A DNA stretch of 64,000 nt, from positions 271,393 to 335,392 of the forward strand of contig JAQBOZ010000007.1 in the NCBI GenBank assembly GCA_028287785.1, given 5' to 3'. Source of the DNA: Chlorobiota bacterium. GTDB lineage: Bacteria; Bacteroidota; Ignavibacteria; OLB7. The position numbers were made by a program, and so were the translations under genes. Below are positions 3,368-64,000 of this stretch, in pieces. Below the pieces are notes generated by a model that saw nothing but the letters and a program-made list of their open reading frames with translations, was not told the origin of the DNA and did not search any database. Position 1 is the stretch's first letter. Each line of letters starts with the position of its first letter.

Positions 3368-3434
3368 GCGTCGTGTGTCGGGGGACGTTTCAAACGTGCC
3401 GGAACAATCGTTTAAAGACGGCCGGGGATAAACT

Positions 3435-4457
3435 CTATCGGGGAACTTCGATCCGATCGACAATTCCCTTCACCACGTCATCCGGCGTCACCCCTTCCAT
3501 CTCCTTCTCCGGCGTGATCAGAATCCTGTGGTTCAGCACCGGGCCGACAACGCGCCGGATATCCTCGGGGGTCACAAAATCGCGACCGGCCATCGCCGCG
3601 AACGCCTTTGCCCCCATCATGATGGAGATCGATGCCCGCGGCGAGGCCCCCAGATAGAGCGCGTTGTTGTTACGCGTGCCATCCACGATCTGAGCGATGT
3701 AGCGAAGAAGCGGCCCCTCGCAATGGACCTCCCGAACCTTCGCGCGGAAGGCGGCGATATGCTCCGCGGTCATCACCGGCCCCACCACGCTGATATCGGT
3801 GCTGCTCTTGCGCTGGTGAAAATCGGCAAGGATCTTCACCTCGTCGTCGATCGAGGGATAACCGACAGTGATCTTGAAGAGAAAGCGGTCCAGCTGCGCC
3901 TCCGGCAGACGGTAGGTTCCCTCCTGTTCGATCGGGTTCTGCGTGGCGATCACCAGAAACGGGCTGTCCATCAGGTAGGTCTCCCCATCCACCGTCACCT
4001 GCCGCTCCTCCATCACCTCGAAGAGGGCTGCCTGCGTCTTGGCCGGCGCCCGGTTGATCTCATCGATCAGGATCAGGTTGCTGAAGATCGGCCCGCGCCG
4101 GAACTCGAACTCGGATGACTTCATGTTGAAGATGGAGGTGCCGAGGATATCGGACGGCATCAGATCGGGGGTGAACTGCACGCGGGAGAAGCCGACCGAA
4201 AGCGTGCGGGCGATCAGCTTCGCGGCAAGCGTCTTGGCGATGCCGGGAACCCCTTCGATCAGCACGTGCCCGTCAGCCAGAATGGCCGCCAGCATCTGAT
4301 CCACCATCGCATGCTGCCCCACCATGATCTTCCCCACCTCCATGCGGATGCGATCCATCGCCTCCCGGATATCGCCGAGATCGAGACGGGATGTAAAGAA
4401 CTCCTGACTGTCCATAATGCCCTTCTGTTTCTGATAGGTTTCGGTAGGATTGAACAT
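3435..4457 (-). CDS. MoxR-family AAA+ ATPase
   Basis: Walker A GVPGIAKT, Walker B LILIDEINRA, sensor and arginine-finger region; ~320-340 aa as typical for MoxR. Confidence 0.9.
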   Translation of the reverse strand: MFNPTETYQKQKGIMDSQEFFTSRLDLGDIREAMDRIRMEVGKIMVGQHAMVDQMLAAILADGHVLIEGVPGIAKTLAAKLIARTLSVGFSRVQFTPDLMPSDILGTSIFNMKSSEFEFRRGPIFSNLILIDEINRAPAKTQAALFEVMEERQVTVDGETYLMDSPFLVIATQNPIEQEGTYRLPEAQLDRFLFKITVGYPSIDDEVKILADFHQRKSSTDISVVGPVMTAEHIAAFRAKVREVHCEGPLLRYIAQIVDGTRNNNALYLGASPRASISIMMGAKAFAAMAGRDFVTPEDIRRVVGPVLNHRILITPEKEMEGVTPDDVVKGIVDRIEVPR

Positions 4458-6516: not shown

Positions 6517-7393
6517 CCGCGCTCCCCGGCTTTTCGCTGGAATCGGTATCGTCGGCGGAATCGGCGTCGTTGCCGCCGATCGTCTGAATGCGGCGCATCA
6601 GCCCGACGCCATCATGCTTCTCCCGGAGGTTGAAGTAGTTGAGCGCGGTGGCAACGGTCGGAAGCGCCGAACAGAGAGCGCCGCCGAAGGTGGCGATGAC
6701 GGTTCCGACCATCGACAGCACGCCGAGACGGTCGCCATGCCCCGTGAAATACCCCTCGGCGAACACGGCAAGCAGCGCCGGGATCTCGAAGAAATAGCGC
6801 ATGACCATGGCGATGATGAACGGCACCACGAAGATGCCGAACGCCAGCCACCAGTGGCCGCGGACCAGCTTGATGCTGCGGGAAACCGACTCCGATATCG
6901 AACACCGTTCGTAGACCTGCACGGTGACCACGACGGTATAGATGCCGAAGCAGTAGATGCCGGGGATGAGGAACAGCATGGAGGCCAGGCCGATGACAAT
7001 CGCGCCGCAGAAATAGGTGAAGCTCACCTTCAGCACATCGCGCCGCGTCTCCCCCCAGACCTCCTCAAGCGTAAACCCGTCCGGCCCCTTCTCGGCATAG
7101 AGCGCCACGAACTCGTTGATCACCGTGGTCATCACCGAGAAGGCCAGCACCAGTATCAGCATGGCAAGGAACACCGAGCCGATTGCGCCCCCCGTGGCCC
7201 CGTAGGACCGATAGGGCCCGGCGTTGATCGCGGAGCCGAACAGGAAGCTGGACACCAGCAGCAGCGGGCCGGCAATGAACAGAACGCACTTCCCCAGGAG
7301 CCTGAAATTTTCCCGGATGAACGTGAAGGTGAGGCCAAGCTGATCGCCGAAATCACGCGACTTGAACAGCTCAAGGGGTTCGGAGGTTTCCAT
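6500..7393 (-). CDS. polytopic integral membrane protein of the MoxR-DUF58 operon
   Basis: About 6 predicted TM helices; overlaps both neighbouring genes (translational coupling). Confidence 0.55.
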   Translation of the reverse strand: METSEPLELFKSRDFGDQLGLTFTFIRENFRLLGKCVLFIAGPLLLVSSFLFGSAINAGPYRSYGATGGAIGSVFLAMLILVLAFSVMTTVINEFVALYAEKGPDGFTLEEVWGETRRDVLKVSFTYFCGAIVIGLASMLFLIPGIYCFGIYTVVVTVQVYERCSISESVSRSIKLVRGHWWLAFGIFVVPFIIAMVMRYFFEIPALLAVFAEGYFTGHGDRLGVLSMVGTVIATFGGALCSALPTVATALNYFNLREKHDGVGLMRRIQTIGGNDADSADDTDSSEKPGSADATGW

Positions 7394-10009: not shown

Positions 10010-10117
10010 ATCGCTGCTCCTTGCGTAATTCATAATCAAGTATTGATCCGGCGGCGCATCCGCGTCCCCGTCATAACCGTCCGGCGCGGCATGCCGCGCC
10101 GGGTTAACCGCTCACGC

Positions 10118-16100: not shown

Positions 16101-16140
16101 AGGATCTTCAGGACCCGCCATCCAACAGCACATCGACGAT

Positions 16141-16452
16141 TCGGTAGTGACTCAGGTTGAATCCGGCCTTCCATCTGCTGAACAATCATCGGGCGGCGAT
16201 CCCTCCTTCTCTCTTCAAGCTCCAGAGGAGCGCGCCGATTGTAGCAACGATAGTTCCATCTCCCGCTCAAGCTCCATCGGAGCGTACCATCCCCGCATCC
16301 GTGCCGAACGGTACGCTCCGATGGAGCTTGAGATCATCGAAGACGTGGCATCGCTACAACCGGTACGCCCCGATGGGGCTGGAAGGAGAGATGCGGAATG
16401 CCCTCGATGAGCCCGAACAGCATGAGCCTTGTCCCAAACTGAGTCACTACCG
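16141..16452. mobile_element. MITE-like nested-palindrome element, family A, copy 1
   Basis: 19-bp terminal inverted repeats TCGGTAGTGACTCAGGTTG / CAAACTGAGTCACTACCGA, internal perfect 23-bp inverted repeat CTCAAGCTCCATCGGAGCGTACC with 21-nt loop, nested TTGTAGCAAC/GTTGCTACAA repeats. Homologous copies at 32508-32813 and 63277-63906. Confidence 0.6.
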
Positions 16453-16591
16453 ACGGTTCCGTGCGATGACATCGATGGGGGAAGGCATCCCTCCGTCGAA
16501 GACAGTCCCGGCTTCCACGGGGAGGCGCGCGGGAAATTTCCGGAGAGCACGGTCGTGGCGCGGCCCACGGATCTGCCGGGCATATCGCATA

Positions 16592-16632
16592 AAAAAAGGC
16601 GCCGAACAGTAACGCTGTTCGGCGCCTTACGT
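16592..16632 (-). terminator. rho-independent terminator of tRNA-Val
   Basis: On the reverse strand GGCGCCGAACAG-cgttac-CTGTTCGGCGCC is followed by TTTTTTT. Confidence 0.7.
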
Positions 16633-16644
16633 GTATGCTCTACG

Positions 16645-16718
16645 TGGGGTTAGTAGGATTCGAACCTACGACCTCATCCATGTCAAGGATGCGCGCTAAC
16701 CAACTGTGCCATAACCCC
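16645..16718 (-). tRNA. tRNA-Val(GAC): tRNA-Val (anticodon GAC)
   Basis: 74-nt cloverleaf folded by hand: acceptor GGGGTTA/TAACCCC, anticodon stem CATCC/GGATG with loop TTGACAT, T-arm GTAGG-TTCGAAT-CCTAC, discriminator A, no encoded CCA. Confidence 0.85.
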
Positions 16719-19422: not shown

Positions 19423-19492
19423 AAGCCGGAGCGCGAAGATAACCGCTTGCCGGAGATTCCACCGCCGGATGCCGACGAAAAATGCTCATATG

Positions 19493-19668
19493 TCGGGGAA
19501 CGTTTGAAACGTCCCCTCATGCATGAAGCGTAAGGGGACGTTTCAAACGTCCCCCGACGATCGCTAGAACCGGACGCCCACGGTCATGAAGAGAATCGGT
19601 AAGGGGACGTTTCAAACGTCCCCCGACGATCGCTAGAACCGGACGCCCGCGGTCATGAAGAGAATCGG
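19493..19668. repeat. tandem array: degenerate unit + 2 x 69-bp units, each carrying the palindrome GGGGACGTTTCAAACGTCCCC
   Basis: Units 19531-19599 and 19600-19668 differ at one position. The last 36 nt of each unit equal the last 11 codons plus TAG stop of the upstream outer-membrane-protein gene. Confidence 0.8.
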
Positions 19669-21561
19669 CAGGCGGCTTACCAGCCGGCTCTCGTCAAACC
19701 TGTGTTCCCACCAGCCGGTGAAGCGGACAAGCGTTCTCTCCGAAAGATAGGCCTCGAACCGCGCCGTCGGGCCAACGGATGTACGATCGGAATACGGGAG
19801 CAGGGCGATGGAGCGGGGATCGGTGCGATAACTCTTCACCCGCGAAAGCCGCCCGCCGATGCCGAAGGTGGTCCCCTCGATGGCGCTCGTGGTCAGCTCC
19901 GCCTCCAGCCCCTCCGTCCGCGTCCGCTCCAGCGGGCTCTCCGCGAACTGATCCCAGCTGAAACTTCCCCGCTCCGCGATTCTGAGATCGCCGCTGGCAA
20001 GGAGACGGAGCGTACGGGAGATCGAGAGGCCGAGCGAATCGCGCAGATGAAGCTCGCGGAACGATCGCCCCCTGATATTCTGCGTCCGCCCCTCGAAATC
20101 GTACACCGTGTAGTTGGCAACCACCTCGGTCTCCAGATAATTCTGAAATCCCTCCCCTATCCGGTAACCGACCGATGGGGCGATCCTGAAGACCCGGTTC
20201 CAGTTGTTGTCGTTGCTGTTCTGGCCGAACAGATAGACCAGGTGTGTCAGAAAGATCTGGCCGTAGACGGAGAGATCGAGCATCGGGCTGAAGGAGCGGG
20301 AGTAGCGCAGCTCCCCCTGGATCGTCTGCTCGTCCTTGTCGAAATAGTTTGTCGGGCTGGGCGTGTCGTATCGATAGATCCCCACGGAGCCGCCGAGCGA
20401 GATGGTATCATAACGCGCCGGCCGGTACTCCGCCGAGCCCGCGAGCCGTATCTGCTGCGATACGAAATCGTTCTGCGCGCTGGTCGATCGCTTCTGCTCC
20501 AGCTCCACATCGCTCACCGAGCCTATCCTCTCGACCGTGTTATCCTGCTCGCTGGTGTAATACTCCATCCTTGCGTTGACGCGAAGATGCGACGGATTCC
20601 AGTGCCCTCCGATAACCGCGCCGATCGCCAGCTCGTTCCGTCCGAAGCCGTACGGATCGGGATCGCGCGGGAGGCCGGGCAGCCCATCGTTCTGCTCGCG
20701 CTGATCGATCTTCAGCCGGGAGAGCGAAACCGTGGCATCGATCCCAAGCTCATCGTTCACCGGATAGCTGATCAGCGAATTGATCCTCAGCCTCCCCTCC
20801 CCCCGCTTCTGGAGCGCCTCGTAGGTCAGGCCGCCGTAACGGAGGATATCATCCTCGCTCCGCTTCACAAGGAGATCGGTGTTGATAAGCTCGTAGTGAC
20901 CCTGAAGGTCGATCACGGAGCCCTCGTCGAACTGGCGCGCGATATGAAGGTCGAGATCGCCATTGCTGTTGTGCCGCGGGGCCACGTTGTAGAACCGGCC
21001 GACCCCCTGGGCCGCGATATGATATCCCTCCAGATCGAGCGACCCGGACCCCTCGCCGTACAGGCCGACTCCCCCATCCTCCACATTCAACTGCCGGTTG
21101 TACGCCCCTCCGGCGGCGATCCCCAGCCTGTTCCCGTCCTCATCCACGATCCTCCCGCCAAGCCCCAGAAATCCGGCGGCCGTGTTGTTCAACCCGGCGA
21201 TCCGGGCATCGCGGCTGGCATCGTTGGTCAGCGTCCCTTCCGAGAGCATGAAGACCCGGAATGGGGAGGATGTCCTGTACTCCATGTCGATCAGCGCGTC
21301 CACCTGATCCCTGGTCGATGGGATGCCGAGCAGCGTTGTCGATGAGGTGAGATAGCTTCGAAAGATCCCGGCGGTCGCCCCCTGAAGCAGCCGATAATCA
21401 GTGGTGAGTGATGTCGTGTGGGTTGCGTCGAACCGCTCGGCGCGCGCAATCGCCTGCTGCCGGATCGTGGAATCCGGGAACTCCGGGACCTGCCCCCGTG
21501 CCGCGGTCGCGATCAGAAGGCAGAAGAGGAGCGCGCCGCACCGCCGGTTCGATAATCCCAC
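19633..21561 (-). CDS. outer-membrane beta-barrel protein, hypothetical
   Basis: Ends ...AGVRF with aromatic C-terminus, amphipathic beta-strand periodicity, signal-like LLFCLLIATAARGQ. A GTG start near 21561 is inferred because aspartokinase ends at 21572. Confidence 0.55.
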   Translation of the reverse strand: MGLSNRRCGALLFCLLIATAARGQVPEFPDSTIRQQAIARAERFDATHTTSLTTDYRLLQGATAGIFRSYLTSSTTLLGIPSTRDQVDALIDMEYRTSSPFRVFMLSEGTLTNDASRDARIAGLNNTAAGFLGLGGRIVDEDGNRLGIAAGGAYNRQLNVEDGGVGLYGEGSGSLDLEGYHIAAQGVGRFYNVAPRHNSNGDLDLHIARQFDEGSVIDLQGHYELINTDLLVKRSEDDILRYGGLTYEALQKRGEGRLRINSLISYPVNDELGIDATVSLSRLKIDQREQNDGLPGLPRDPDPYGFGRNELAIGAVIGGHWNPSHLRVNARMEYYTSEQDNTVERIGSVSDVELEQKRSTSAQNDFVSQQIRLAGSAEYRPARYDTISLGGSVGIYRYDTPSPTNYFDKDEQTIQGELRYSRSFSPMLDLSVYGQIFLTHLVYLFGQNSNDNNWNRVFRIAPSVGYRIGEGFQNYLETEVVANYTVYDFEGRTQNIRGRSFRELHLRDSLGLSISRTLRLLASGDLRIAERGSFSWDQFAESPLERTRTEGLEAELTTSAIEGTTFGIGGRLSRVKSYRTDPRSIALLPYSDRTSVGPTARFEAYLSERTLVRFTGWWEHRFDESRLVSRLPILFMTAGVRF

Positions 21562-21571
21562 CGGCGGGCCC

Positions 21572-22918
21572 TCAGGTATGAGTGTCGGAATGGAGAACCC
21601 CGGTGGCGGCCGCGAAACGCTCGTGAAGTGGGCCAAGCGTCCGCCGGGCCGCTTCACGGTCGAGCGCCACGCTGATGGCCCGCCCTTCGATTCCCCCCTG
21701 CATCGCCAGCAGATCCCGGCCGGCAAACGCGGCAAAGAACCGCTCCATCTCCTCACCGCTCAGACGCTCCTCCCCAACCAGCGACAGGACCGATACCGGC
21801 GCGACATGAGCCTCCACCGGCTCCGCTACCAGATGCACCGGAAGGCTCGCGTGCGGATACGGCCCGGCCAGCAGGATCTGCATTCGGTGACGGAACCGTT
21901 GCTGCCAGATGATCGGCGTCTCGGCGGCGATGGCGCGGAGGAACGGATCGAGCGCGGCGGTCGTGGTGGCCGTCTCCAGCGAGATCAGCTCGGCATCCGG
22001 GAGCATCGCGATGGAATATCCATGCTCTCCCTCGGTTCCGATCGTCGTGGATTCCCCACCCAGGCTGGTGATCACAAGCGGAATCGAGGAGCGTTCCACC
22101 GGCATCACCGTCCGCGGATGGAGGATCTTCGCCCCCAGCTCGGCCAGCGTGTTCGCCATCGCGTAGCTCATCGTTCTGAGCGTGCGCGCCTCGGGGACCA
22201 GCTTGGGATCGGCGGTGAGGATGCCGGGAACGCTGGTGTAGATCCTGACCTCGCGGGCGTCGAGGATCGAGGCGAGCATCGTGGCGGAATAGTTGGAGGA
22301 TTCGCGCCCCATCGTGGTTGCCTGCCCCGATGCGCTTCTGGCGATATACCCCTCGGTCACCACCACCGGATGCGTAGCCAGCAGCGGGGGGATCTGCTCC
22401 AGCACCCGCTCCCGCGTCAACTCCAGATCGGGACGGGCGTAGCGATGCGCGCCATCGGTGATGATCAGATCCAGCGCGCAGATGCCGGCGGCATCGGCTC
22501 CGGAGGGGGAATCGTTCAGCGCGGCCAGCAGCAGCGCCGAGGAAAATCGTTCGCCGAAATGGACGATCAGGTCAAGCGTGCGCGGCGAAAGCTCGCGGAC
22601 GATGCCAAGCCCCTGCACAACATCGGCAAGGCGCGCCCTGTGCGGAGCTATCGTCTCAAGCCATGCGTTGTACGCCCCGGCGGAAAGCGCGCGACGGGCA
22701 ATCCCGGCGTGAAGCTCGATGATGGCGTCCAGATCGCGCGCGGCGGCCGCGGAATCGGACAGCGCGTGATCGGCAAGGTGTTCAAGAAGATTGGTGACGT
22801 TGGCGAACGCACTCACCACGACGAGAAGAGGACCCGGAAGGCGACGGATTTCATCACGCGCGCGAAGGAGCCCCTCGCTGCTGTTGAGGAGTGCGCCGCC
22901 GAATTTTGCGACAATCAT
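21572..22918 (-). CDS. aspartate kinase
   Basis: MIVAKFGGALL... (KFGG kinase motif), amino-acid-kinase domain plus C-terminal ACT-like region; 448 aa. Confidence 0.85.
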   Translation of the reverse strand: MIVAKFGGALLNSSEGLLRARDEIRRLPGPLLVVVSAFANVTNLLEHLADHALSDSAAAARDLDAIIELHAGIARRALSAGAYNAWLETIAPHRARLADVVQGLGIVRELSPRTLDLIVHFGERFSSALLLAALNDSPSGADAAGICALDLIITDGAHRYARPDLELTRERVLEQIPPLLATHPVVVTEGYIARSASGQATTMGRESSNYSATMLASILDAREVRIYTSVPGILTADPKLVPEARTLRTMSYAMANTLAELGAKILHPRTVMPVERSSIPLVITSLGGESTTIGTEGEHGYSIAMLPDAELISLETATTTAALDPFLRAIAAETPIIWQQRFRHRMQILLAGPYPHASLPVHLVAEPVEAHVAPVSVLSLVGEERLSGEEMERFFAAFAGRDLLAMQGGIEGRAISVALDREAARRTLGPLHERFAAATGVLHSDTHT

Positions 22919-32507: not shown

Positions 32508-32813
32508 AGTTACTTCCTGACTCAGCCTGAATCAGGCTCTGGTCTGCGCCGCGATCATCCGGCAATATCTCTTCATCGTTCTTCAAGCTCCGTGGGAGCG
32601 CGCCGGTTGTAGCAACCGATGCTCCCGTTCCCCCTCAAGCTCCATCGGAGCGGACCATCCCCGCATCCATGCCGAATGGTCCGCTCCGATGGAGCCTGAC
32701 ATCATGAAAGACGTGACGTTGCTACAACCAGCCCGCCCCGATGGGGCTGTCAAGACGGAGGCCTTACATAATGCCGTGTTTCGTGCCTCTCATCTCAAAT
32801 TGAGCCACTACCC
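32508..32813. mobile_element. MITE-like element family A, copy 2 (left terminal repeat degenerate)
   Basis: Shares the internal CTCAAGCTCCATCGGAGCGGACC hairpin and loop with copy 1; right end CAAATTGAGCCACTACC. Confidence 0.45.
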
Positions 32814-35990: not shown

Positions 35991-36043
35991 GCGTGGCGGA
36001 TGGTCGGGGCGGGTTTGAAACCCGCCCCGACCATCCGCCACGC
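35991..36043. repeat. perfect 53-nt palindrome (26-bp arms, single-nt centre) of the GGGCGGGTTT-AAACCCGCCC family
   Basis: GCGTGGCGGATGGTCGGGGCGGGTTT-G-AAACCCGCCCCGACCATCCGCCACGC, verified base by base. It lies 24 nt upstream of the Rieske-fusion start codon. Confidence 0.9.
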
Positions 36044-39677: not shown

Positions 39678-39973
39678 ACTCCATATGTAAGGATAACGTT
39701 GATATTGTTGAGCATCGCTGCAATCGGCGCGGGGGAGTTGGAAACCCCGCCACGGGAGTGATTAAGATAACGGCATCGCGGAAAAACTACCACGCACTTC
39801 CGTGCATTCCGTAGATTTGCCCCCTTGACCGGCCCCTTCTCGCGCCCGGCGGCTCTCCCTGACCGGAGCGTCCCGAAGCCGGAGATGGCGCCATCCCGTC
39901 CGATTCGAAACAACGGGTGTTCCCTATCAAACGTTAGGCCCGTTCCGGGCATTTCCTATATCATTTCTCGTCC

Positions 39974-41528
39974 CATGCAAACGCGCACTCAAGATAACGA
40001 TCAGGTAGCCCGGCGCTACGAAGAGCTTGAACATCTCGAATCGGCGGGGGTGCTTGCCTATCCGTATGCGTTCGATAAAACGCATAGCGCCGCCGCCGCG
40101 AAATCGCAGTATCAGGATGACACGCCGGAGCTCACCGTCGCGGTTGCCGGACGGATCGTGGGGATCAGGCGGATGGGAAAGGCGAGCTTCGTTCATATCC
40201 AGGATGATTCCGGCAGACTTCAGATCTATCTGAAGAAGGATGATCTCCCGGATTACGACCAGTTCCGGCTGTACGATATCGGCGATATCATCGGCGCGGC
40301 CGGCTACATGTTCCGCACCCGCACCAACGAGGTGACGCTGCACGCCAGGAGTTTCACGCTCCTCACCAAGTGCCTCTCCCCGCTGCCGATTGCCAAGGAG
40401 GAGATCGATGAGGAGGGGAACAGGATCGTTCACGATCAGTTCGCCGACAAGGAGATGCGCTACCGCCAGCGATACGTGGATCTCGCGGTCAACCCGGAGG
40501 TGCGCGATGTCTTCCGGAAGCGGGCCAAGCTGATCACCACCGTCCGCCGCTATCTCGATCAGCGGAACTATCTGGAGGTGGAAACCCCCGTCCTGCATAC
40601 GATGTACGGCGGCGCCGCGGCCCGCCCCTTCGCGTCGCATCTGAACGCGCTGGATATCCCCCTCTTCCTCCGGATCTCGCTGGAGCTGAACCTGAAGCGT
40701 CTGATGGTCGGCGGCTTCGAGGGGGTCTACGAGCTTGGCAAGAATTTCCGGAACGAGGGGATCGACAAGACCCATAATCCCGAGTTCACGATGCTGGAGC
40801 TGTACGTGGCGTACAGGGATTACATGTGGATGATGGAGATGACCGAGGAGATGCTGACGGAGGTTGTGATGGCTGTCAACGGCTCGCTCCATGTCACCGC
40901 GGCCAACGGCGCCACGCTGGACTTCACCCCGCCGTACCGCCGCGCCACGATGCACGGGCTGATCGCGGAGTATACGGGAAAGGATATCGAGGGGATGGAT
41001 CTTGCGTCGCTCCGGGCGCTGGCGCACGAGCAGGGGGTTCATACCGATGCAACGATGGGAATCGGGAAGGTGATCGATGAGATATTCTCGGAGAAGGTGC
41101 AGCCGCATCTTGTGCAGCCGACATTTGTGATGGACTATCCCGAGGAGATGGTGCCGCTTGCCAAGCCGCATCGCTCCAAGGCCGGGCTGGTGGAGAGCTG
41201 GGAGCTGATCATCAACACGCAGGAACTGGCCCCCTGCTTCAGCGAGTTGAACGATCCCCGTGTTCAGCGCCGTCGCTTCACCGAGCAGGCGAAGCTCCGC
41301 GACGCCGGCGACGACGAGGCGATGCTGATCGACGAGGATTTCCTGCGCGCTCTGGAGGTCGGCATGCCGCCGGCCGCCGGCATGGGGCTGGGAATCGACC
41401 GCCTGACGATGATCCTCACCGGCGAGGAATCGATCCGCGATGTGATCTTCTTCCCGATGATGCGCCCTGATGAACGGCGCGACGCTGGTGGGAGTGATGC
41501 GGCGGCCGCGGATGAAACCGCCGGATGA
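39974..41528 (+). CDS. lysS: lysine--tRNA ligase (class II)
   Basis: OB-fold anticodon-binding N-terminus, class II motifs 1-3 (FRNEG..., GGAAARPF, GMGLGIDR). Confidence 0.9.
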
Positions 41529-41535
41529 TGTATAA

Positions 41536-41572
41536 CGCAGTCGGGGCGGGTTTTAAACCCGCCCCGACTGCG
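41536..41572. repeat. perfect 37-nt palindrome CGCAGTCGGGGCGGGTTT-T-AAACCCGCCCCGACTGCG
   Basis: Sits between convergent lysS and the 41553-42038 gene; the TAA stop of the reverse-strand gene is the palindrome centre. Confidence 0.85.
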
Positions 41573-42038
41573 ACCGATGTTCCGCCATCATCTCCATCAC
41601 CTTCCGGTAGTATTCCGCCACGCTCTCCGCTGCTCCGTCGGTGATGCGACGGAAAACGCGCGCGGTTGGGAAGAGAACCGTGCCATCCGGAAGCTCCACG
41701 GCCAGAAGGGTTGGCGCCTCCTCATGGCCGGTGATCCATGTGCCGCCAAGCTCCAGCCGGAACGTTTCGCCGAGATAGATCCCCCAGAGATTTGCCCACT
41801 GCGCCACATCCACATCGCTTGTCCCAAGGCCCAGCCGTTTCTTGAAGGATTTCTGAGTGTACTGCCCGTGCAGTTCCTCCAGCATCTCATCGAGAACCGG
41901 CAGGGTCGCCGGGGTATGGTCGAACAGCGCCGAGCGCCAGCTTACGGCGGCATCGCGGGCGGCGGCATCGTACTGCGCCACCAGCACCTCCAGCGATTCG
42001 GGTTTTTCCGGCTTCTTGAACGCTCGTTTTTTCAGCAT
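41553..42038 (-). CDS. hypothetical cytoplasmic protein
   Basis: 161-aa ORF with good codon periodicity; the last 6 codons and the stop are contributed by the palindrome. Confidence 0.45.
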   Translation of the reverse strand: MLKKRAFKKPEKPESLEVLVAQYDAAARDAAVSWRSALFDHTPATLPVLDEMLEELHGQYTQKSFKKRLGLGTSDVDVAQWANLWGIYLGETFRLELGGTWITGHEEAPTLLAVELPDGTVLFPTARVFRRITDGAAESVAEYYRKVMEMMAEHRSQSGRV

Positions 42039-43087: not shown

Positions 43088-43246
43088 AACGATTCCTGAA
43101 TATCGATGGAAGAAATGATCAATCCGTTTCGTTATGAAGAGATCAAAATCCGTACCTCAAACCTCCATCCCCTCAGATGTGCGCGGGGCGATGCCCCGCG
43201 CACCAGGAATTGCGCCCCTCCGGGGCTTGGGACGATGCTTCCGACA

Positions 43247-43408
43247 ACGCTGCGGATGACCTTCTTCAGCGTATTCCAGAGACGCAGACCCTTCAAGGAC
43301 GATCAGGTGCAAGGCGGCCGAGCCTGAGCGAGTGAGGCGTCCCCCCGGACGCCGCAATGAGCCAACGGTGAAGGCCAACGCCGCAGATGACATCCTTCAA
43401 CAGTCTGC
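43247..43408 (-). mobile_element. MITE-like element family B, copy 1 (far end degenerate, 14-nt insertion)
   Basis: Reverse complement aligns with 51652-51786 (shared GCAGACTGTTGAAGGAyGwCATCTGCGGCGTTGGCCTTCACCGTT...). It abuts the TAG stop of mgtE. Confidence 0.5.
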
Positions 43409-51651: not shown

Positions 51652-51786
51652 CAGACTGTTGAAGGACGACATCTGCGGCGTTGGCCTTCACCGTTCGCTC
51701 ACTGCGGCGTCCGTGAGCTCAGGTTCGGCCGCCTTGCATCTGATCGCCTTGAAGGGTCTGAGCGCTGAAAGCACTTCAACAGTCTG
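51652..51786 (+). mobile_element. MITE-like element family B, copy 2
   Basis: Perfect 13-bp terminal inverted repeats CAGACTGTTGAAG...CTTCAACAGTCTG. It begins on the base after the gltX TAG stop and is followed by a CGGCGGCG/CGCCGCCG hairpin. Confidence 0.6.
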
Positions 51787-54987: not shown

Positions 54988-57948
54988 ATGCACGTTGTTC
55001 GCTACCTGGCCCTCCTCTGGCTCCTCCCCATCGCGGCCCTGGCCCAGGGCTCGAACATGGTTTCCAATCCCGGCTTTATCGGCACCTATGGAACCGGCAT
55101 CGGCCCCGATAATATCCCCCCGTGGCTCCCCGCCTGCGGCACCCCTGACGCGCGCGCCGGCAACGGCTGTTCCGATACCGGCTATATCGCGATGTGGGGG
55201 AACAAGTTCGTCGGGGAGGCGATCAAGGAAAAGCTGTTCATCCGCATCAGGAAGGACAGCCTCTACACCTGCTCCCTCTGCATGCGCGCCAGCCCCGATG
55301 TCGGCAGGTACTTCCGCGCCCGCGTCGTGGCGTTCAGCACCACTCCCCGGTTCGACAATTTCCACTGGGATATTCAGGAGCCGCAGGTTGCCCTGATCGG
55401 ATCGGCCGGCACCGCCAGCCTGAACTGGCGCACCCTCACATTTCCACCGTGGAAGGCGCCGGCTGACTACGACAGCATCGCGATCAACGTCGAGAACGAT
55501 TCCGCCGACTACACCAACCCGGCCACCGTATCGTGGGGGAATATCGACGGGGTGAATCTGGAGAAGGTGTCGAAGTGCATCCTGTCGGTGGACTCGTTCA
55601 CCGTCCGCTGCAACGGCTTCGATCAGCAGGGACACCGGCTCTACCTCTACTCGGTAAACGCGAGAAGCGATATCGATGGCTTTATCGTCGCATCCACGCC
55701 GAACGGACAGGCGACCATCTCCCAGAACACGATCCCCGCGGCCACGGAGGTGAACATCACCGGCACGATCACCGGCACCAGCGGGACAAATGATCCGCTC
55801 TGCCTCTACGTTTCCCTTATCACCGGAAACGGCCTCCTCTGCCGCGATTCCATCTGCATCCCCTCGCCACTGCCGGCGCCCCTCAACAGCCGCGACACGA
55901 TCTGCACCGGCGGAGCCATCACGCTCGATGCGCCCGACGGGATCGCCTGGCGCTGGAGGCCGGCCACGGGACTGAGCTGCGCGGACTGCCAGCACCCGAC
56001 GGCATCGCCCGATGTCTCGACCAGGTATCTGGTGGAAACCACCGGCCGGCAGGGATGCGTCTCGGTCGATACCGCCGATCTCCAGGTGGCCCCGCTGCCG
56101 GTCATCACCGCCGGAACCAAGGTGACGATATGCCTGGGAGGAAGCACGGAGTTGTTGGTATCCGGCGGGGCAGCCTATCGCTGGAGCCCGGCGACGGGAT
56201 TGAGCTGCACGACGTGCCCCAACCCCATCGCCTCACCGACCGAGCCGACGGTGTACACGGTAACGGTGACAAGCGCCGCCGGCTGCTCCGCGAACGCCTC
56301 GATAACCGTGTTGATCGATTCCGCGACGGCGATGATCCGATCGATTTCGAGGGATACCACCATCTGCGCCGGAGAGGGCGCGCACCTCATCGCGAGCGGC
56401 GCCGATCGCTATCAGTGGTCCCCCGCCACCGGGTTGGGCTGCGTCGACTGCGCCGATCCGATCGCGTCGCCGGCCGTCACGACCCGATATACCTGCACGT
56501 TCATCAGCGTCGCCGGCTGCTCCGCGCGGGATTCCGTGCTGGTGACCGTGGCGCCACCGCCGGCCGCGGACGCCGGGGCCGATACAACCATCTGCGCCGG
56601 AGGAGAAGCGGCGCTGAGCGGGTCCGGCGGCACCGGATACAACTGGTCCCCCGCCGATGCAATCAGTTGCACCGACTGTAGAAATCCGGTGGCCCGCCCC
56701 CTGATCACAACCACCTATACACTCCGCGTGACAAACGCGGCAGGCTGCTCCGCGACCGACTCCGTTACCGTGCATGTCCTCCCCCTCCCCTCCGCCGACG
56801 CCGGCCCCGATGTCGCGGCCTGCCCCGGAGAGAGCATCACCCTCTCGGCATCGGGCGGAACAACGTATGCCTGGTCCCCCGCCGAAGGGCTCAGCTGCGC
56901 CGACTGTCAAAGCCCGGTCGCCACGCCGTTGCGGACGACGGTCTATCATCTGACGGCAATCAACGCCGCCGGCTGTGCCGCAACCGACAGTGTTACGGTA
57001 AACCTCCGCGCGGCTCCGACGGTGACCGCTTCCGGCGATACCGATATCTGCCCGGCCCGCCCGGCCCGGCTCCATGCGTCGGGCGCGTCGGTCTACCGCT
57101 GGAGACCGGCCACCGCCCTTTCCTGTACGGACTGCCCCGATCCCGTGGCAACGCCGCTGGTCACCACCACCTATGTGGTTTCGGGGACCGACGCTCATGG
57201 CTGCACCGGGGAGGACACGGTGATCATCCGCGTCGGCGATGGAACGCGAACCATCACGGCGCATATCGATCGCGACCACCACCTTCTGCCGGGAAGCATC
57301 ATCGCGATTCCCATCATCCTGGATTCCGCGGCGGACGGCGCGGCAACGCTGGAGATCGCGCTGGGTTACGAACGACGCTTCCTCCGCCTCAAACGGATTT
57401 CGACCGATGGAACGCTCCTCGACGGATGGGCCATCACCACCCTGACCGATTCGCTCGGCGCCGTCCGCGTCAGGCTGGATGCCCCACCGGGACGCACGCT
57501 GCGGGGACGGGGAACGCTGGCGACGATCGATCTGGCGGGCTATCTGGCCGATACGGTGGAATCGGAACTGCCGTTCAGCATCACCCTCCCGGCCGGCTCG
57601 TGCGATCGCATCACCGCGCTGCCGGGGCATATCAGGATCGATTCGATCTGCGGGCTGAACCTCCGGCTGATCCGTGTGACCGTCGGCAACTACTCCCTCG
57701 CGGGAAATCGCCCCAACCCCTTCAACCCATCCACCGAGATATCCTTCTCGCTCGGCCTTGACGGGCCCACAACGCTGGCGATCTACGACGCCGCCGGCAA
57801 TGCCATCACCACCCTCATCGACACCTGGCTCCGGCCCGGAAGCTACACCGTCGCGTGGGATGCCTCCGGGCAGCCCTCCGGCATCTACTACTACAGGATG
57901 ACCTCCGGCGCCTGGAGCGGCCAGGGAAGGATGCTGCTTGTGAAATAA
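54988..57948 (+). CDS. large secreted protein with 8 tandem ~47-aa Cys-containing Ig-like repeats and T9SS C-terminal sorting domain
   Basis: Signal peptide; repeat consensus ICxGxxxxLxASGGxxYxWSPAxGLSCxDCxxPxAxPxxTTxYxVTxxxxxGCxxxDSVxVxV spanning ~55880-57240; C-terminal ...GNRPNPFNPSTEISFSL...GIYYYRMTSGAWSGQGRMLLVK. Confidence 0.75.
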   Translation: MHVVRYLALLWLLPIAALAQGSNMVSNPGFIGTYGTGIGPDNIPPWLPACGTPDARAGNGCSDTGYIAMWGNKFVGEAIKEKLFIRIRKDSLYTCSLCMRASPDVGRYFRARVVAFSTTPRFDNFHWDIQEPQVALIGSAGTASLNWRTLTFPPWKAPADYDSIAINVENDSADYTNPATVSWGNIDGVNLEKVSKCILSVDSFTVRCNGFDQQGHRLYLYSVNARSDIDGFIVASTPNGQATISQNTIPAATEVNITGTITGTSGTNDPLCLYVSLITGNGLLCRDSICIPSPLPAPLNSRDTICTGGAITLDAPDGIAWRWRPATGLSCADCQHPTASPDVSTRYLVETTGRQGCVSVDTADLQVAPLPVITAGTKVTICLGGSTELLVSGGAAYRWSPATGLSCTTCPNPIASPTEPTVYTVTVTSAAGCSANASITVLIDSATAMIRSISRDTTICAGEGAHLIASGADRYQWSPATGLGCVDCADPIASPAVTTRYTCTFISVAGCSARDSVLVTVAPPPAADAGADTTICAGGEAALSGSGGTGYNWSPADAISCTDCRNPVARPLITTTYTLRVTNAAGCSATDSVTVHVLPLPSADAGPDVAACPGESITLSASGGTTYAWSPAEGLSCADCQSPVATPLRTTVYHLTAINAAGCAATDSVTVNLRAAPTVTASGDTDICPARPARLHASGASVYRWRPATALSCTDCPDPVATPLVTTTYVVSGTDAHGCTGEDTVIIRVGDGTRTITAHIDRDHHLLPGSIIAIPIILDSAADGAATLEIALGYERRFLRLKRISTDGTLLDGWAITTLTDSLGAVRVRLDAPPGRTLRGRGTLATIDLAGYLADTVESELPFSITLPAGSCDRITALPGHIRIDSICGLNLRLIRVTVGNYSLAGNRPNPFNPSTEISFSLGLDGPTTLAIYDAAGNAITTLIDTWLRPGSYTVAWDASGQPSGIYYYRMTSGAWSGQGRMLLVK

Positions 57949-58141
57949 TCTCTTCAGTCTCGTGATGAATTGCAGTGATCGTGTGTCCTGATCCCCATGG
58001 GCCGCGTTTCCCGCGCGTCCCACGGCGGACCGGCCCGTGCGCCGTAACGTTCCGCCCGTGGAATCATTCCTGGCTATGACCGGCGAACGCCATCGGTCAG
58101 GAACGGCTCCCCGCCGCGGCACTCTCAATTCATCCGAGGCA

Positions 58142-61100
58142 ATGCTCATGAGGCTGATTTCATCTGATCCGGCAGGCGGCGGGAAGAACCTGCTTCCGCT
58201 CACCATCGCGCTCATCATCGCCATCATTGCGCTGGTTCCGGGCGTTCTCCGCGCGCAGGGGGGGACATCATCGGACGCTCCGCCGAGCGGGGAAACCGTG
58301 GAACGCGCGCTCTCCTCGCTGCCGGTCGTCTTCCGCAGGAACGCGGGGCAGTGGGAAGATCCGATTCTCTACCAGGGACGCTCCGCGGGGGCCAATGTCT
58401 ACTTTATGCGGGACGGGCTCAGCTTCGGCTATACGCGTGAGATAGAGGGAGAGGACGAGGAGGGAGAGGGTGATGAGGGGAGCCACGGCGATGAGTCGGA
58501 TGCATCGGAATTCCTGGTCTGGAACCTCACGTTCGCCGGGATGAATCCCAATGCGCGCGTCGTCTCCGAAGGGGAACACGAGGGGAACACGAACTATCTC
58601 CGCGGCGAGGATTTCAGCAGACACCTGACCCATGTGCCGGAGTATTCGCGCCTCTGGTACAGGGATATCTACCCCCATATCGATCTCCGCTACTACGGCA
58701 CCGGAGCGGCGTTGAAGTACGATTATATCGTGGCGCCGGAGGGGAATATCGCCGATATCAGGATGGCGTGCAGCGGCATCGAGAAGCTGGCGATCAACGC
58801 AAAGGGACAGCTCGAAATCACCAACGCCTGGGGAACCGTGGCCGAGGAAGTGCCCTTCACCTATCAGGTGATCAACGGCGCCAGACGCGAAGTGGCGTCG
58901 CGCTATCGGATGGTGAACGATACCACGTTCGGCTTTGCGATCACCGGCGGCTACGATCATGCGGAGCCGATCGTGATCGACCCGATCATGCTGGCGTGGT
59001 CCACCTTCGTCGGCGGGACGGGGGATGAACAGATGGGATATATCCGCGATATCGCCGTGGATAAGAAGGGGAATGTCTACGGCACCGGCTGGTATACCGC
59101 CGGGTTCCCGACAACGCCCGGCGTCTACGGCAAAGGCGCGTTCGGCCCCGACTACAATTTCTTCCACGACTACTACAACGATGTCTTCGTCTTCAAGCTG
59201 GACGCCACAGGGACAAAGCTGATCTACTCCACCTATATCGGCGGCTCATCGAACGAGCTGGGGCTCAGGCTCAGGGTGAACGATGCGGGAGAAGCGTTTG
59301 TTACCGGGCAGACCTTCACATCCGGGGGCGGGTTCGGGCGGAACAACTTTCCGATCACCGCCAACGCGCTGTCGAAAACGTATGGCGGCAACTTCGATCT
59401 CTTCGCCCTCCGCCTGAGCGCCGACGGGACAAAGCTGATCTACTCCACCTACATCGGCGGTGATGATTACGAGGACGTTGGGGGGATCGCGATCGATCAG
59501 CAGGGATCGCTCTATATCTGCGGCTCCACATCCAGCAGCAATTTTCCGACGACGGCCGGCGCCATCCGCCGCACCCCCTACGGCAACTCGGATATCTTCG
59601 TCTCCAAACTCGCCGACGATGGAAGCAGGATGATCTTCTCCACCTATATCGGTCAGAAGGGGAATGACAGCGCGTACGATATGGCGCTCGACCGCCAGGG
59701 AAATATCTACGTTTCAGGGTGGACAAGCTCCACCAATTTCCCCGTCACCGCCGGAGCCTACGCAACCCGCTACGGCGGCGCGGGGGCGGGAGTTGTGCTG
59801 AAGCTGGCCCCCGATGGGGGACGCATTATCTACGCAACCTTTATCCAGTCCGCCAACGACGACAAGAACGTGATCGCGGTTGACCGCGACGGGAGCGCCG
59901 TTGTTGCCGGGACCACCAACGACCGGAACTTCCCCACCACCGCGAAGGCGTATTCGCGAACGCTGAAGGGGGCCTCCGATGCGTTCGTGGTAAAACTGGA
60001 TAGCCTTGGGGCGACGGCGCGCTACTCCACGCTCCTTGGCGGAAGCGGCAATGAACAGCCCGAGGGAATCGCCCTTGCCGCCGGCGGAGAGGTCTTTATC
60101 TCCGGAAGATTGATCTTCCCGAACGCCCCCTCCACCCGGAATTTCAAGGCCGATTTCCCCGTGACCAGATGCGCGCTGGAACCGGATTACCGCTCGCAGA
60201 TGGATTTCAGTTTGCTGTGGGACGGCTTCGTCAGCCGCCTGAGCGCCGACGGGGCGCGGCTTGAATACTCCACCTATCTCGGCGGCAAGAACAATGATTA
60301 CTACGCCAGAGTCATATTCGATACGGTCGGCGGCAGGCAGGATCTCTATATCTCGATAACAACCCATTCCCCCGATTTCGTCACCACGCCGGGATCGTTT
60401 CAGCCGGTGAAGCTGAACACTGCCCGCGATCAGCCGGTGGTGATGAAGCTTAGTCCCATCTACCGTCCCGCGTTCACGCACCGGGCCGATAACTGCGGCG
60501 GGGATCGATTCTTCGATTCCACCATCGCCGACTGCATCTGGACCGACAGCACATGGACGCCGGGAAGCTGGCGATGGGATTTCGGCGATGGATCGACATC
60601 GACCGATCGCAACCCCATCCATTCCTACACGCGTCCCGGCGACTACGCGGTAACGCTGGTGACCGGAGCGCCGTACGACTCGATAACGACCGTCGTTCAT
60701 ATCGCCCCGGCGGGCTCCATCGCACCCGCCGCCGCCGCCCATATCGCGACCGACAACCGGGCGATGCCTGGGGATTCCGTGACGATTCCTGTGGTGCTCG
60801 ATACCCCCGCCGATACGCTCGGCTGCCGCCGGATAGCCTTCTCGATCCTCTATGACAGCAACATGATGAGCCTGGCAAATGCCACCCCCACCAGGCTCCC
60901 CTCGATGCTCAAGGGGACGCTTGTCGAGGGATGGACCCCGATGGTAACGGCCGATCGCCCCGGCTTCTTCTCCCTCACGCTGGATGCTCCGCTCTCGATT
61001 CAGCCGCTGAAGGGGAAGGGAAATATTCTCGAGCTGCGGTTTTCCACATTTATCAAGGGGGCGGGCGACGCGCAGACCGATTCGATCTGGCGATCGCCGC

Positions 61101-61477
61101 TGCCGTTCGATCTTACGCTCTACACGGCGCAGTGCGCGCCGGTTGCCACCGTTCCGGGGGAACTCCGATTCGAGCTCTGCGGCATGCGGGAACGCCTGAT
61201 CATCGCCACGATGTCGAAGTATGCTCTGAGGCCCAATGCCCCCAACCCGGTCCACTCCGCCACGGATATCGAGTTCTCGCTCGGCCTGGATGGCTATACA
61301 ACGCTGGCGGTCTACAATGCCCGCGGGGAAAAAGTGGAGACGCTGGTGGATGGATACCTGGAGCCCGGAAGCTACGCGGCCCACTGGGATGGAACCCGTC
61401 ATCCCTCCGGCGTCTATCACTACCGGCTCTCCTCCGGCACCTGGAGCGCGGAGGGGAGGATGCTGCTGACGAAATGA
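58142..61477 (+). CDS. secreted SBBP beta-propeller-repeat protein with PKD domain and T9SS C-terminal sorting domain
   Basis: Repeated YSTYIGGxxxExGxxIAxDxxGNxYVxGxTxSxNFPTTxGA (SBBP) units x~9, PKD-like WDFGDGSTSTDRNPIHSYTRPGDYAVTLV, C-terminal ...RPNAPNPVHSATDIEFSL...GVYHYRLSSGTWSAEGRMLLTK. Start at MLMRLISS (TM/signal anchor follows). Confidence 0.75.
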   Translation: MLMRLISSDPAGGGKNLLPLTIALIIAIIALVPGVLRAQGGTSSDAPPSGETVERALSSLPVVFRRNAGQWEDPILYQGRSAGANVYFMRDGLSFGYTREIEGEDEEGEGDEGSHGDESDASEFLVWNLTFAGMNPNARVVSEGEHEGNTNYLRGEDFSRHLTHVPEYSRLWYRDIYPHIDLRYYGTGAALKYDYIVAPEGNIADIRMACSGIEKLAINAKGQLEITNAWGTVAEEVPFTYQVINGARREVASRYRMVNDTTFGFAITGGYDHAEPIVIDPIMLAWSTFVGGTGDEQMGYIRDIAVDKKGNVYGTGWYTAGFPTTPGVYGKGAFGPDYNFFHDYYNDVFVFKLDATGTKLIYSTYIGGSSNELGLRLRVNDAGEAFVTGQTFTSGGGFGRNNFPITANALSKTYGGNFDLFALRLSADGTKLIYSTYIGGDDYEDVGGIAIDQQGSLYICGSTSSSNFPTTAGAIRRTPYGNSDIFVSKLADDGSRMIFSTYIGQKGNDSAYDMALDRQGNIYVSGWTSSTNFPVTAGAYATRYGGAGAGVVLKLAPDGGRIIYATFIQSANDDKNVIAVDRDGSAVVAGTTNDRNFPTTAKAYSRTLKGASDAFVVKLDSLGATARYSTLLGGSGNEQPEGIALAAGGEVFISGRLIFPNAPSTRNFKADFPVTRCALEPDYRSQMDFSLLWDGFVSRLSADGARLEYSTYLGGKNNDYYARVIFDTVGGRQDLYISITTHSPDFVTTPGSFQPVKLNTARDQPVVMKLSPIYRPAFTHRADNCGGDRFFDSTIADCIWTDSTWTPGSWRWDFGDGSTSTDRNPIHSYTRPGDYAVTLVTGAPYDSITTVVHIAPAGSIAPAAAAHIATDNRAMPGDSVTIPVVLDTPADTLGCRRIAFSILYDSNMMSLANATPTRLPSMLKGTLVEGWTPMVTADRPGFFSLTLDAPLSIQPLKGKGNILELRFSTFIKGAGDAQTDSIWRSPLPFDLTLYTAQCAPVATVPGELRFELCGMRERLIIATMSKYALRPNAPNPVHSATDIEFSLGLDGYTTLAVYNARGEKVETLVDGYLEPGSYAAHWDGTRHPSGVYHYRLSSGTWSAEGRMLLTK

Positions 61478-61509
61478 TGATCGCGCCACGATGCAATGCA
61501 CTGTTGTAA

Positions 61510-61530
61510 GGGGACGTTTTAAACGTCCCC
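61510..61530. repeat. palindrome GGGGACGTTTTAAACGTCCCC between convergent genes
   Basis: Same TAA-GGGGACGTTTyAAACGTCCCC-CGAC context as the copies at 19534 and 19603. Confidence 0.8.
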
Positions 61531-61540
61531 CGACAGGCCG

Positions 61541-63202: not shown

Positions 63203-63276
63203 GCCGATGCCCTTGCGATTTCCCGAAAGCCGGCAAGTTAGGGAGAAGGCGTGGTTCTGATAACGTGTTGGGGATC

Positions 63277-63589
63277 ATGGGTAGTGACTCAGGTTGGGAT
63301 ACGGTTCATGCTGTTCGGACTCATCGAGGGCATTCGGCATCTCTCCTTCCAGCCCCATCGGGGCGTACCGGTTGTAGCAATGCCATGTCTTCGATGATCT
63401 GAAGCTCCATCGGAGCGTACCATTTGGCACGGATGCGGGGATGGTACGCTCCGATGGAGCTTGAGCGGGAGATGGGAGCATTGTTGCTACAACCGGCGCG
63501 CTCCTACGGAGCTTGAAGAGTGAAGGAGGGATCGCCGCTCGATGATTGTTCAGCAGATGGAAGACTGGATTCAAACTGAGTCACTACCG
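63277..63589. mobile_element. MITE-like element family A, copy 3 (inverted relative to copy 1)
   Basis: GGTAGTGACTCAGGTTGGG...CAAACTGAGTCACTACCGG; internal AGCTCCATCGGAGCGTACC-loop-GGTACGCTCCGATGGAGCT; preceded by GATCATG. Confidence 0.6.
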
Positions 63590-63590
63590 G

Positions 63591-63906
63591 ATCATGAGAG
63601 TGACTCGGGTTGGGATGGGATTCATGATGCCCGGAATCATGGAGGCACCCGGCAGCCGTCTTCACAGCCCCAGCGGGGCGAGCCGGTTGTAGCAATGCCA
63701 TGTCTTTTGTGATGTCAAGCTCCGTAGGAGCGTACCATTCGGCACGGATGCGGGGATGGTTCGCTCCGATGGAGCTTGGGCAAACAACGGGAGCATCGTT
63801 ACTACAACCGGCGCGCTCCTACGGAGCTTGAAGAGCGATGAAGACTTCGCCGATGGAGGATCATTCAAGGGCTCCGAGGCTGGATTCACACTGAGGCACT
63901 GCCAGA
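63591..63906. mobile_element. MITE-like element family A, copy 4, in direct tandem with copy 3
   Basis: Starts ATCATGAGAGTGACTCGGGTTGGGATGG, same internal hairpin set, ends CACACTGAGGCACTGCCAGATCAT. Confidence 0.55.
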
Positions 63907-64000
63907 TCATCGCACAATTCCCTCTTCCCTTTGGAAGTTGTGGGGAGATAAGTTGAAATTGCCATTCATGCTCTTCTCGAAACAGACACGCCGTCGCTCG

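Follow-up and report, generated by a model that had tools for sequence, protein, structure and literature searches.

A putatively new family of tagged REP-type palindromes in an uncultured Kapaibacterium lineage

Introduction

Short extragenic palindromes carrying a GTAG tag form a superfamily that includes the E. coli REP/BIME and the Pseudomonas REPs and has been surveyed by Di Nocera, De Gregorio & Rocco (2013; PMC3733652). In the part of that survey drawn on here, GTAG-tagged REPs are described as having an unpaired tag at one end, which several families show degenerated to GTMG, stems 6-13 bp long with very short loops, and sub-families distinguished by complementary stem changes. They form HH dimers and clusters that are reiterated together with flanking DNA, they insert within other palindromes, and they are mostly located between unidirectional or convergent ORFs, near the 3' end of the upstream one. 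The same part of the survey assigns the repeats of Bacteroidetes and Chlorobi to the CGTC type, which is characterized by 8-9 bp stems starting with A-T pairs, loops of 4-5 nt and CCA tails, and which apparently comes without a dedicated transposase. REP/RAYT and IS200/IS605 biology is treated by Quentin et al. (2018; PMC6006769), and the REPIN-RAYT system by Bertels & Rainey (2011; PMC3116915).

Here we describe a palindrome family that recurs in a stretch of 64,000 nucleotides (the window, which denotes this whole stretch) and in a related Kapaibacterium MAG. As in the GTAG-tagged superfamily, the element is a high-copy extragenic palindrome of 25-29 nt, its GTCG or GTAG tag falls within GTMG and its 10-bp stem lies in the described range; dimers, reiterated clusters, nesting in other palindromes and a position near 3' gene ends are likewise shared. 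Unlike the families covered in the consulted part of the survey, it is hosted by Kapaibacterium, its tag is mainly GTCG, no REPtron was found in the ~756 kb searched, and its stem sequence matches no described family when compared by the features described there. Because anatomy and distribution agree with the traits given in that source (PMC3733652), as far as its portion used here goes, we assign the element to the GTAG/GTMG-tagged REPs; judged by its sequence it is a new family of a kind that is itself well known. We found no description of a tagged REP family in Kapaibacterium. What is new is the lineage, the family itself and a case of REP capture by an IS5-like MITE.

The element is less similar to the other two systems. 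With the CGTC REPs it shares the phylogenetic neighbourhood and possibly the 'orphan' status, but in comparison with what the cited part of the survey states about them it is tagged with GTCG, its 10-bp stem is rich in G and its tail differs. Like the sequences of the REPIN-RAYT system (PMC3116915), the copies are vertically inherited intergenic hairpins of which orthologous ones are kept between relatives, and one long hairpin can be formed by the inverted doublet at 19492-19558. In contrast to that system, the defining single-copy RAYT was not found in ~756 kb. A classification as REPIN, with the inverted doublet as the replicating unit and singlets as its decayed remains, was rejected since most copies are singletons and the window holds one doublet.

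Results and discussion

Copies in the window

The window contains five copies of GGGGACGTTTyAAACGTCCCC, with none expected by chance (Table 1). They were identified by a pattern search of the whole window for GGGGACGTTTYAAACGTCCCC allowing up to 3 mismatches, and none of 100 dinucleotide-preserving shuffles of the window yielded a match. A 30-nt profile of tagged related copies recovered exactly the same five and no decayed extra copies in the window. The original prediction of a palindrome family with at least five copies is hence confirmed. Of the coordinates it had given, the last three are correct, whereas the first two are off by one base, the palindromes really occupying 3381-3401 and 19496-19516. 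The extended context TAAGGGGACGTTTyAAACGTCCCCCGAC, ascribed to the last three copies, is indeed found in all of them; that a TAA...CGAC context is always present was overstated, as the CGAC/GTCG part occurs in 5/5 copies and TAA in only 3/5. Overlooked were a 69-nt tandem duplication, the inverted doublet at 19492-19558 and a sister sub-family.

Table 1. Coordinates of REP-type copies, the tandem duplication and MITE-A copies in the window
Feature	Position	Strand	Match to GGGGACGTTTYAAACGTCCCC	Remarks
Degenerate REP copy	3377..3401	+	3381-3401, 2 mismatches	GTCG tag at 3377-3380, followed by the hairpin
REP copy	19492..19516	+	19496-19516, 1 mismatch (- strand)	GTCG tag at 19492-19495 and hairpin with one G.T-type mismatch; left head-to-head partner
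REP copy	19530..19558	-	19534-19554, exact	Reads GTCG-GGGGACGTTTGAAACGTCCCC-TTAC on the - strand; right head-to-head partner
REP copy	19599..19627	-	19603-19623, exact	Identical to the copy at 19530-19558
REP copy	61506..61534	-	61510-61530, exact	Rare A/T centre
Tandem duplication, 69 nt x 2	19530..19667	.		Units 19530-19598 and 19599-19667; TRF 98% matches, repeat comparison 99%
Sub-family copy GTCG-GGGGCGGGTTTGAAACCCGCCCC-CGAC	36003-36031	.		Enclosed by a perfect, unique palindrome of 53 nt, 35991..36043
Sub-family copy GTCG-GGGGCGGGTTTTAAACCCGCCCC-CGAC	41540-41568 within 41536..41572	.		4-nt palindromic extension
MITE-A, 'empty' copy GCGTTGGCCTTCA	51652..51786	+		IS5-like MITE
MITE-A, second 'empty' copy	43284..43407	-		Standalone REP at the orthologous site of the MAG (L010 3327)

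The degenerate copy lies in the 67-nt spacer between moxR (3435-4457, - strand) and a DUF58 gene (start ~3372, - strand), and its RNA fold reaches only -8.9 kcal/mol (z -0.4). In contrast to the last three copies, the first two have this tag on the other strand (TGTCGGGGG... at 3376 and 19491). Copies 2-4 are located between a 707-aa gene and a HATPase_c_2 gene on the same strand. The first two of these constitute the inverted doublet, whose halves (19492-19522 and 19528-19558) point their tags outward and which can fold into a 28-bp hairpin of -58.2 kcal/mol (z -12). The third is situated 5 nt past the stop codon of gene 19633-21756 (- strand), and the duplicated 69-nt unit comprises the palindrome together with the last 35 nt and the stop codon of this gene. 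The tandem duplication also created a probably spurious 16-codon ORF (MKRIGKGTFQTSPDDR, 19586-19636, + strand) that runs through the palindrome; the 3' end of the 707-aa gene lies antisense to it. The last copy, between the convergent genes 58037-61477 (+ strand) and 61541-63202 (- strand, NFACT), forms an RNA hairpin of -21.6 / -19.1 kcal/mol.

Two further palindromes in the window belong to a compensatory sub-family, GTCGGGGCGGGTTTkAAACCCGCCCCGAC, that keeps the frame GTCG-GGGG...TTTNAAA...CCCC-CGAC while the changes in the middle of the stem compensate each other. The longer palindrome around the first (fold -59.5 kcal/mol) lies in a divergent spacer upstream of a DAO/Rieske gene, and that around the second (-37.6 kcal/mol) between the convergent genes 39825-41528 (+ strand) and 41553-42038 (- strand). 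Overall, 5/9 perfect hairpins of the window with stems of at least 9 bp are members of this superfamily. Unique GC-rich perfect hairpins without a T-run are also found in intergenic DNA at 10081-10102 and 43179-43203. The sole classical hairpin with a T-run is a canonical terminator at 16596-16628, beside a tRNA (16645-16718), and it may be usual for genes of this organism to end with tail-less hairpins.

Distribution of the family

A scan of 185,579 species-representative genomes gave at least 106 matching stretches. One MAG, 'Candidatus Kapaibacterium sp. cluster1_bin.331' (JBDSJW01), accounts for 99 of the 106 listed, and at least 134 exact 21-mer copies are present in the 692 kb fetched from it. 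The ratio of perfect to imperfect copies in the MAG loci (137:22) is inflated by their having been fetched through exact matches; by-catch alone gives roughly 38:22. The few matches from other phyla among those listed are singletons without the GTCG tag and usually represent the core of a unique longer hairpin. JGI metagenomes contained no match to the tagged pattern and six untagged singletons, in unrelated GC contexts, with the core pattern. Among the matches listed, the REP-type family is specific to one uncultured Bacteroidota group. Since DNA identity between the window and MAG JBDSJW01 amounts to 88-92% over ~21 kb of orthologous sequence, the window is, by this measure, from a sister species of the same genus in the phylum Bacteroidota. 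The 61.5-kb palindrome is precisely where short-read contigs of the window's organism stop, which is what a genome-wide repeat would lead one to expect.

Anatomy of the element

In the unit of ~29 nt, a tag GT(C/A)G stands unpaired at the 5' end and is followed by a stem of 10 bp (GGGGACGTTT/AAACGTCCCC) that encloses one central base, and by a loose tail that often reads TTAC. It is this tail, at the end opposite to the tag, that had been recorded on the other strand as 'TAA'. Among 145 copies with usable flanks, GTCG directly precedes the stem on one side only in 102 and flanks it on both in 15; of the 28 copies without GTCG, 7 or more have GTAG in the same position and orientation. The central base correlates with the orientation of the tag (77:18). 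Rare stem variants are compensatory (AGG/CCT three times, CGG/CCG, CAGG/CCTG and CGGG/CCCG twice). No target-site duplication rose above permutation level in 84 oriented standalone copies, for k = 2-6 and many offsets.

Most copies are singletons in unrelated flanks. Others occur as head-to-head doublets or in short tandem arrays whose 'spacer' is a repeated piece of the local flank; dimers and arrays of the MAG are exemplified by loci L035, L095, L025, L074 and L097. Some copies are centred in longer palindromes unique to their locus, such as that around the window copy at 36003 and the MAG copy L010 3327. A CRISPR array, in which unique spacers would part evenly spaced repeats, was rejected, since the arrays comprise 2-3 units with identical copies of flanking DNA as 'spacers'.

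These features bear on the proposal, made in the original prediction, that the AAACGT/ACGTTT core is a dimeric transcription-factor operator. More generally, the palindrome could be an operator, a nucleoid-protein site or a gyrase site at which a dimeric protein recognises ACGTTT-N-AAACGT. Such a role would be in line with the perfect dyad symmetry, the very high sequence conservation and the half-site arrays that adjoin some MAG copies, but the tag stands on one side alone, and the middle of the stem has undergone compensatory substitution while the dyad was kept. Furthermore, half-sites on their own are no more frequent in the window than chance predicts: of 12 matches, 9 lie within palindromes and 3 outside, with 3.4 expected by chance for the whole window. 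The copies are also biased to 3' gene ends, not to promoters, and divergent spacers hold 11 of 113 classified copies, most of these spacers being long enough for an unpredicted gene. With this post-stop position added to the other three points, we regard a protein-binding site as highly improbable.

The direct half-site arrays themselves, GG(G/A)GACGTTT with a period of 15-17 nt, are found in the MAG (L089 ~200-260, L100 ~4222-4280, L018 ~6790-6850) and not in the window; slippage may have produced them, or they may be additional units for protein binding. DNA uptake sequences number in the thousands, as single short motifs that are only sometimes paired and of which many are intragenic. A DUS/USS was rejected for the present element in view of the chance level of isolated half-sites and the occurrence of its copies as full, intergenic palindromes.

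Position relative to genes and turnover between sister species

The genomic context was scored for 154 copies with up to 3 mismatches from the MAG loci and the window, using gene calls of our own rough codon-bias predictor (~83% coding), in which gene starts are approximate. Co-directional spacers accommodate 77 copies, convergent spacers 25 and divergent spacers 11; another 27 are at a locus edge, 11 in the first 150 nt of an over-extended ORF, 2 within 30 nt of a 3' end, and 1 is 'deep' inside a predicted gene, 43 nt from the 3' end of that gene. The element is essentially always intergenic in these 154 copies. Within co-directional spacers, the element stands at a median of 41 nt past the upstream stop codon and 96 nt short of the following start (that of the longest ORF), with 53 copies nearer to the stop and 24 nearer to the start. 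Most of the 'divergent' spacers measure 400-900 nt, and small genes may be hidden in them. The checks on copy number and on position that were proposed with the original prediction turned out positive: the motif is enormously over-represented, intergenic and biased to 3' gene ends.

A single unit forms an RNA hairpin of -19 to -22 kcal/mol, and a dimer reaches -58 kcal/mol. At the gathering threshold, Rfam returned two tRNAs only and no match to the palindrome, and at the E-value threshold only sub-threshold matches to generic long-hairpin miRNAs. The claim that the hairpins lack a U-tract and are not classical intrinsic terminators holds, as no copy is followed by a T-run on either strand. 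Between positions 1 and 20000 a terminator scan picked up none of the palindromes. The element resembles intrinsic terminators in being a GC-rich hairpin a few tens of nt past a stop codon; it differs from them by the missing T/U tract, by its identical sequence at more than 150 loci and by its occurrence in an operon spacer and in a MITE. An intrinsic terminator was rejected for lack of a T-run.

Five orthologous sites could be compared between the window and the MAG, of which two are shared, two are occupied only in the MAG and one only in the window. The shared sites are those at 3381, where the MAG holds a perfect copy (L031 5240), and at 61510, where 30 consecutive columns including the rare T/A centre are identical between flanks that can barely be aligned. 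The window sites corresponding to the two MAG-only copies (L010 3327 and L093 1346) hold other elements. At the gene end that carries the window-only copy at 41540, the MAG has a different hairpin, and neither is followed by a T-run. A 1.49-kb insertion of the MAG (L010 4960-6450 versus window 41529-41582), which begins with its own hairpin CACAGGGGTAATTCATGAATCACCCCTGTG, is located directly beside the position of the 41540 palindrome.

Some of these observations would fit an explanation in which the hairpins are mainly host-functional RNA, namely U-tract-independent terminators, attenuators or 3'-end stabilisers, that are selected while their spread is incidental. Copies shortly after stop codons that form stable RNA hairpins would be expected, as would the 61.5-kb copy, where both species agree over 30 nt between flanks that can hardly be aligned, and the orthologous gene end at which the two species have different strong hairpins without T-runs. 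Other tail-less GC hairpins in spacers of the window also suggest that hairpin-only 3' ends may be generally used here. Nevertheless, for 25 nt to be identical at more than 150 loci a copying mechanism is required rather than convergence, and in a symmetric hairpin there is no role for a tag on one side. Moreover, copies are found in the moxR-DUF58 operon spacer, in divergent spacers and in the MITE, and the organism does possess a canonical hairpin with a T-run (16596-16628). There is no orientation bias with respect to transcription or strand (16:13) and no significant excess of G.U mismatches (sense-strand G.U versus A.C 7:4); therefore, the sequences do not demonstrate a function at the RNA level. 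Overall, we consider it unlikely that such a function is the main explanation.

Capture by an IS5-like MITE

Both species also harbour a MITE of 150-172 nt with the TIR CAGACTGTTGAA, termed MITE-A, which is present in 70 copies in the MAG loci L001-L106 and often abuts a stop codon. Its 4-bp NTAN target duplication (CTAT, TTAG, ATAA, CTAG and others) is like that of IS5-family elements. No transposase gene matching MITE-A was seen. The 'empty' form, ...GCGT-TGGCC-TTCA..., is that of both copies in the window and of 20 or more in the MAG, while 44 MAG copies are 'filled' at the same internal position (...GCGT-CC-GGGGACGTTTSAAACGTCCCC-CGACA-TTCA...), the ratio of filled to empty copies in the MAG being biased because the loci were fetched by exact REP matches. 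Because the two forms differ at this one internal position, the sequences indicate that the palindrome entered one MITE-A copy and that the chimera then multiplied. Identity among filled copies is 88.6%, slightly above the 85.7% among empty ones. The element is hence a high-copy, intergenic and discrete module that turns over between close species and has entered another mobile element.

The relation of the palindrome to MITE-A can also be read in the opposite direction, with the palindrome as a minimal TIR-TIR derivative of MITE-A that is moved by the same DDE transposase. The REP tag and arm TGTCGGGGGACGT resemble the inner MITE-A TIR TGTTGAAGGACGT in 10/13 positions, as seen for example at window 61499-61520 and L093 1325-1366, a few MAG copies are directly joined to the MITE-A terminus CAGACTGT/ACAGTCTG, and ACTGTTG precedes the 61.5-kb copy of the window. 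However, the outer CAGACT terminus is absent from most copies, none of the five window copies adjoins an exact CAGACTGT, and the resemblance is short; it may reflect chance or shared ancestry. MITE-A generates its NTAN duplication whereas standalone palindromes have none, and we consider a derivation from MITE-A quite improbable. A DDE-type MITE in general was rejected for the palindrome on the same contrast in target-site duplications within the same genomes.

Search for a RAYT transposase and proposed mode of spread

The original prediction had viewed the palindromes as REP-type elements and, among other possibilities, as targets of a REP-associated transposase, with a RAYT gene to be sought elsewhere. 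Anatomy and distribution support the REP-type reading, in which the elements may be targets of such a transposase; the RAYT gene was not found in ~756 kb. This search space comprised the window and the 106 loci, that is, 64 kb plus part of one fragmented MAG, and no RAYT or Y1 HUH transposase was detected in it. E. coli RayT compared by phmmer with the 4,895 six-frame ORFs (70 aa or longer) of the ~756 kb had no hit at E<10, and two HUH...Y motif regexes, built on the HuH/YxxNP signatures tabulated in PMC6006769, matched only non-RAYT sequences such as a response regulator. An all-vs-all blastp of the window and the loci revealed no multi-copy, transposase-like proteins, and Pfam scans of 20 window proteins no transposase. 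ORFs flanked by palindrome pairs are ordinary housekeeping genes, and a REPtron, in which the RAYT gene is flanked by the element, was not found within the ~756 kb. It should be considered that MAGs often lose RAYT-type transposase genes.

One possibility is that the family consists of orphan tagged REPs without a RAYT, spread and kept by the MITE, by tandem reiteration and by selection of the host for tail-less hairpins at 3' ends, or that an undescribed GTCG-guided HUH enzyme is at work; we deem this rather doubtful. In our opinion the copies are probably a lineage-specific REP-type family that, by analogy with described systems, is copied in trans by a RAYT, with a role of the RNA hairpin being secondary. 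The proposed mechanism is modelled on REP/RAYT and IS200/IS605 biology, including the structure of E. coli RayT with REP. The hairpin would form in single-stranded DNA, where an HUH tyrosine transposase (RAYT) acting in trans would read the tag and the foot of the stem and would cut and paste a copy. Insertion by this route would leave no target duplication. In the related MAG, copies would in addition have been spread passively inside the IS5-like MITE, and they would survive where harm is small, mainly just downstream of stop codons. Once transcribed, the hairpin could act as a barrier to exonucleases that shields the 3' ends of mRNA, or could weakly attenuate read-through. Both RAYT mobilisation and any such RNA-level role are what we infer by analogy, and we regard the latter as a side effect or secondary co-option rather than the raison d'être of the family.

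The presented findings add a tagged REP family to those known by extending the kind to an uncultured Bacteroidota lineage, and they alter no general concept. MITE-A provides a clean natural case of REP capture and amplification by a DDE-type MITE, which bears on the question of how REPs spread without an obvious transposase. From a practical point of view, short-read assemblies of this lineage fall apart at the REPs and at two MITE families, all of which are also lineage-specific markers.

Other repeats in the window

A second repeat family of ~320 nt has the TIRs GGTAGTGACTCAG...CTGAGTCACTACC and folds into one long hairpin of -163 kcal/mol. Its four members (16138-16460, 63271-63593 and 63644-63912, the latter two in reverse complement, and the partial 32567-32763) are all intergenic. 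The family has no Rfam match, and a short-read contig of the same organism starts at its TIR. Besides these elements, the 3' ends of the large neighbouring genes 54988-57948 and 58037-61477 share 73-76% identical DNA (57706-57949 versus 61235-61478). The second of these genes contains DUF7948, SBBP and PKD domains, and the similarity suggests a common C-terminal domain, possibly a secretion sorting domain.
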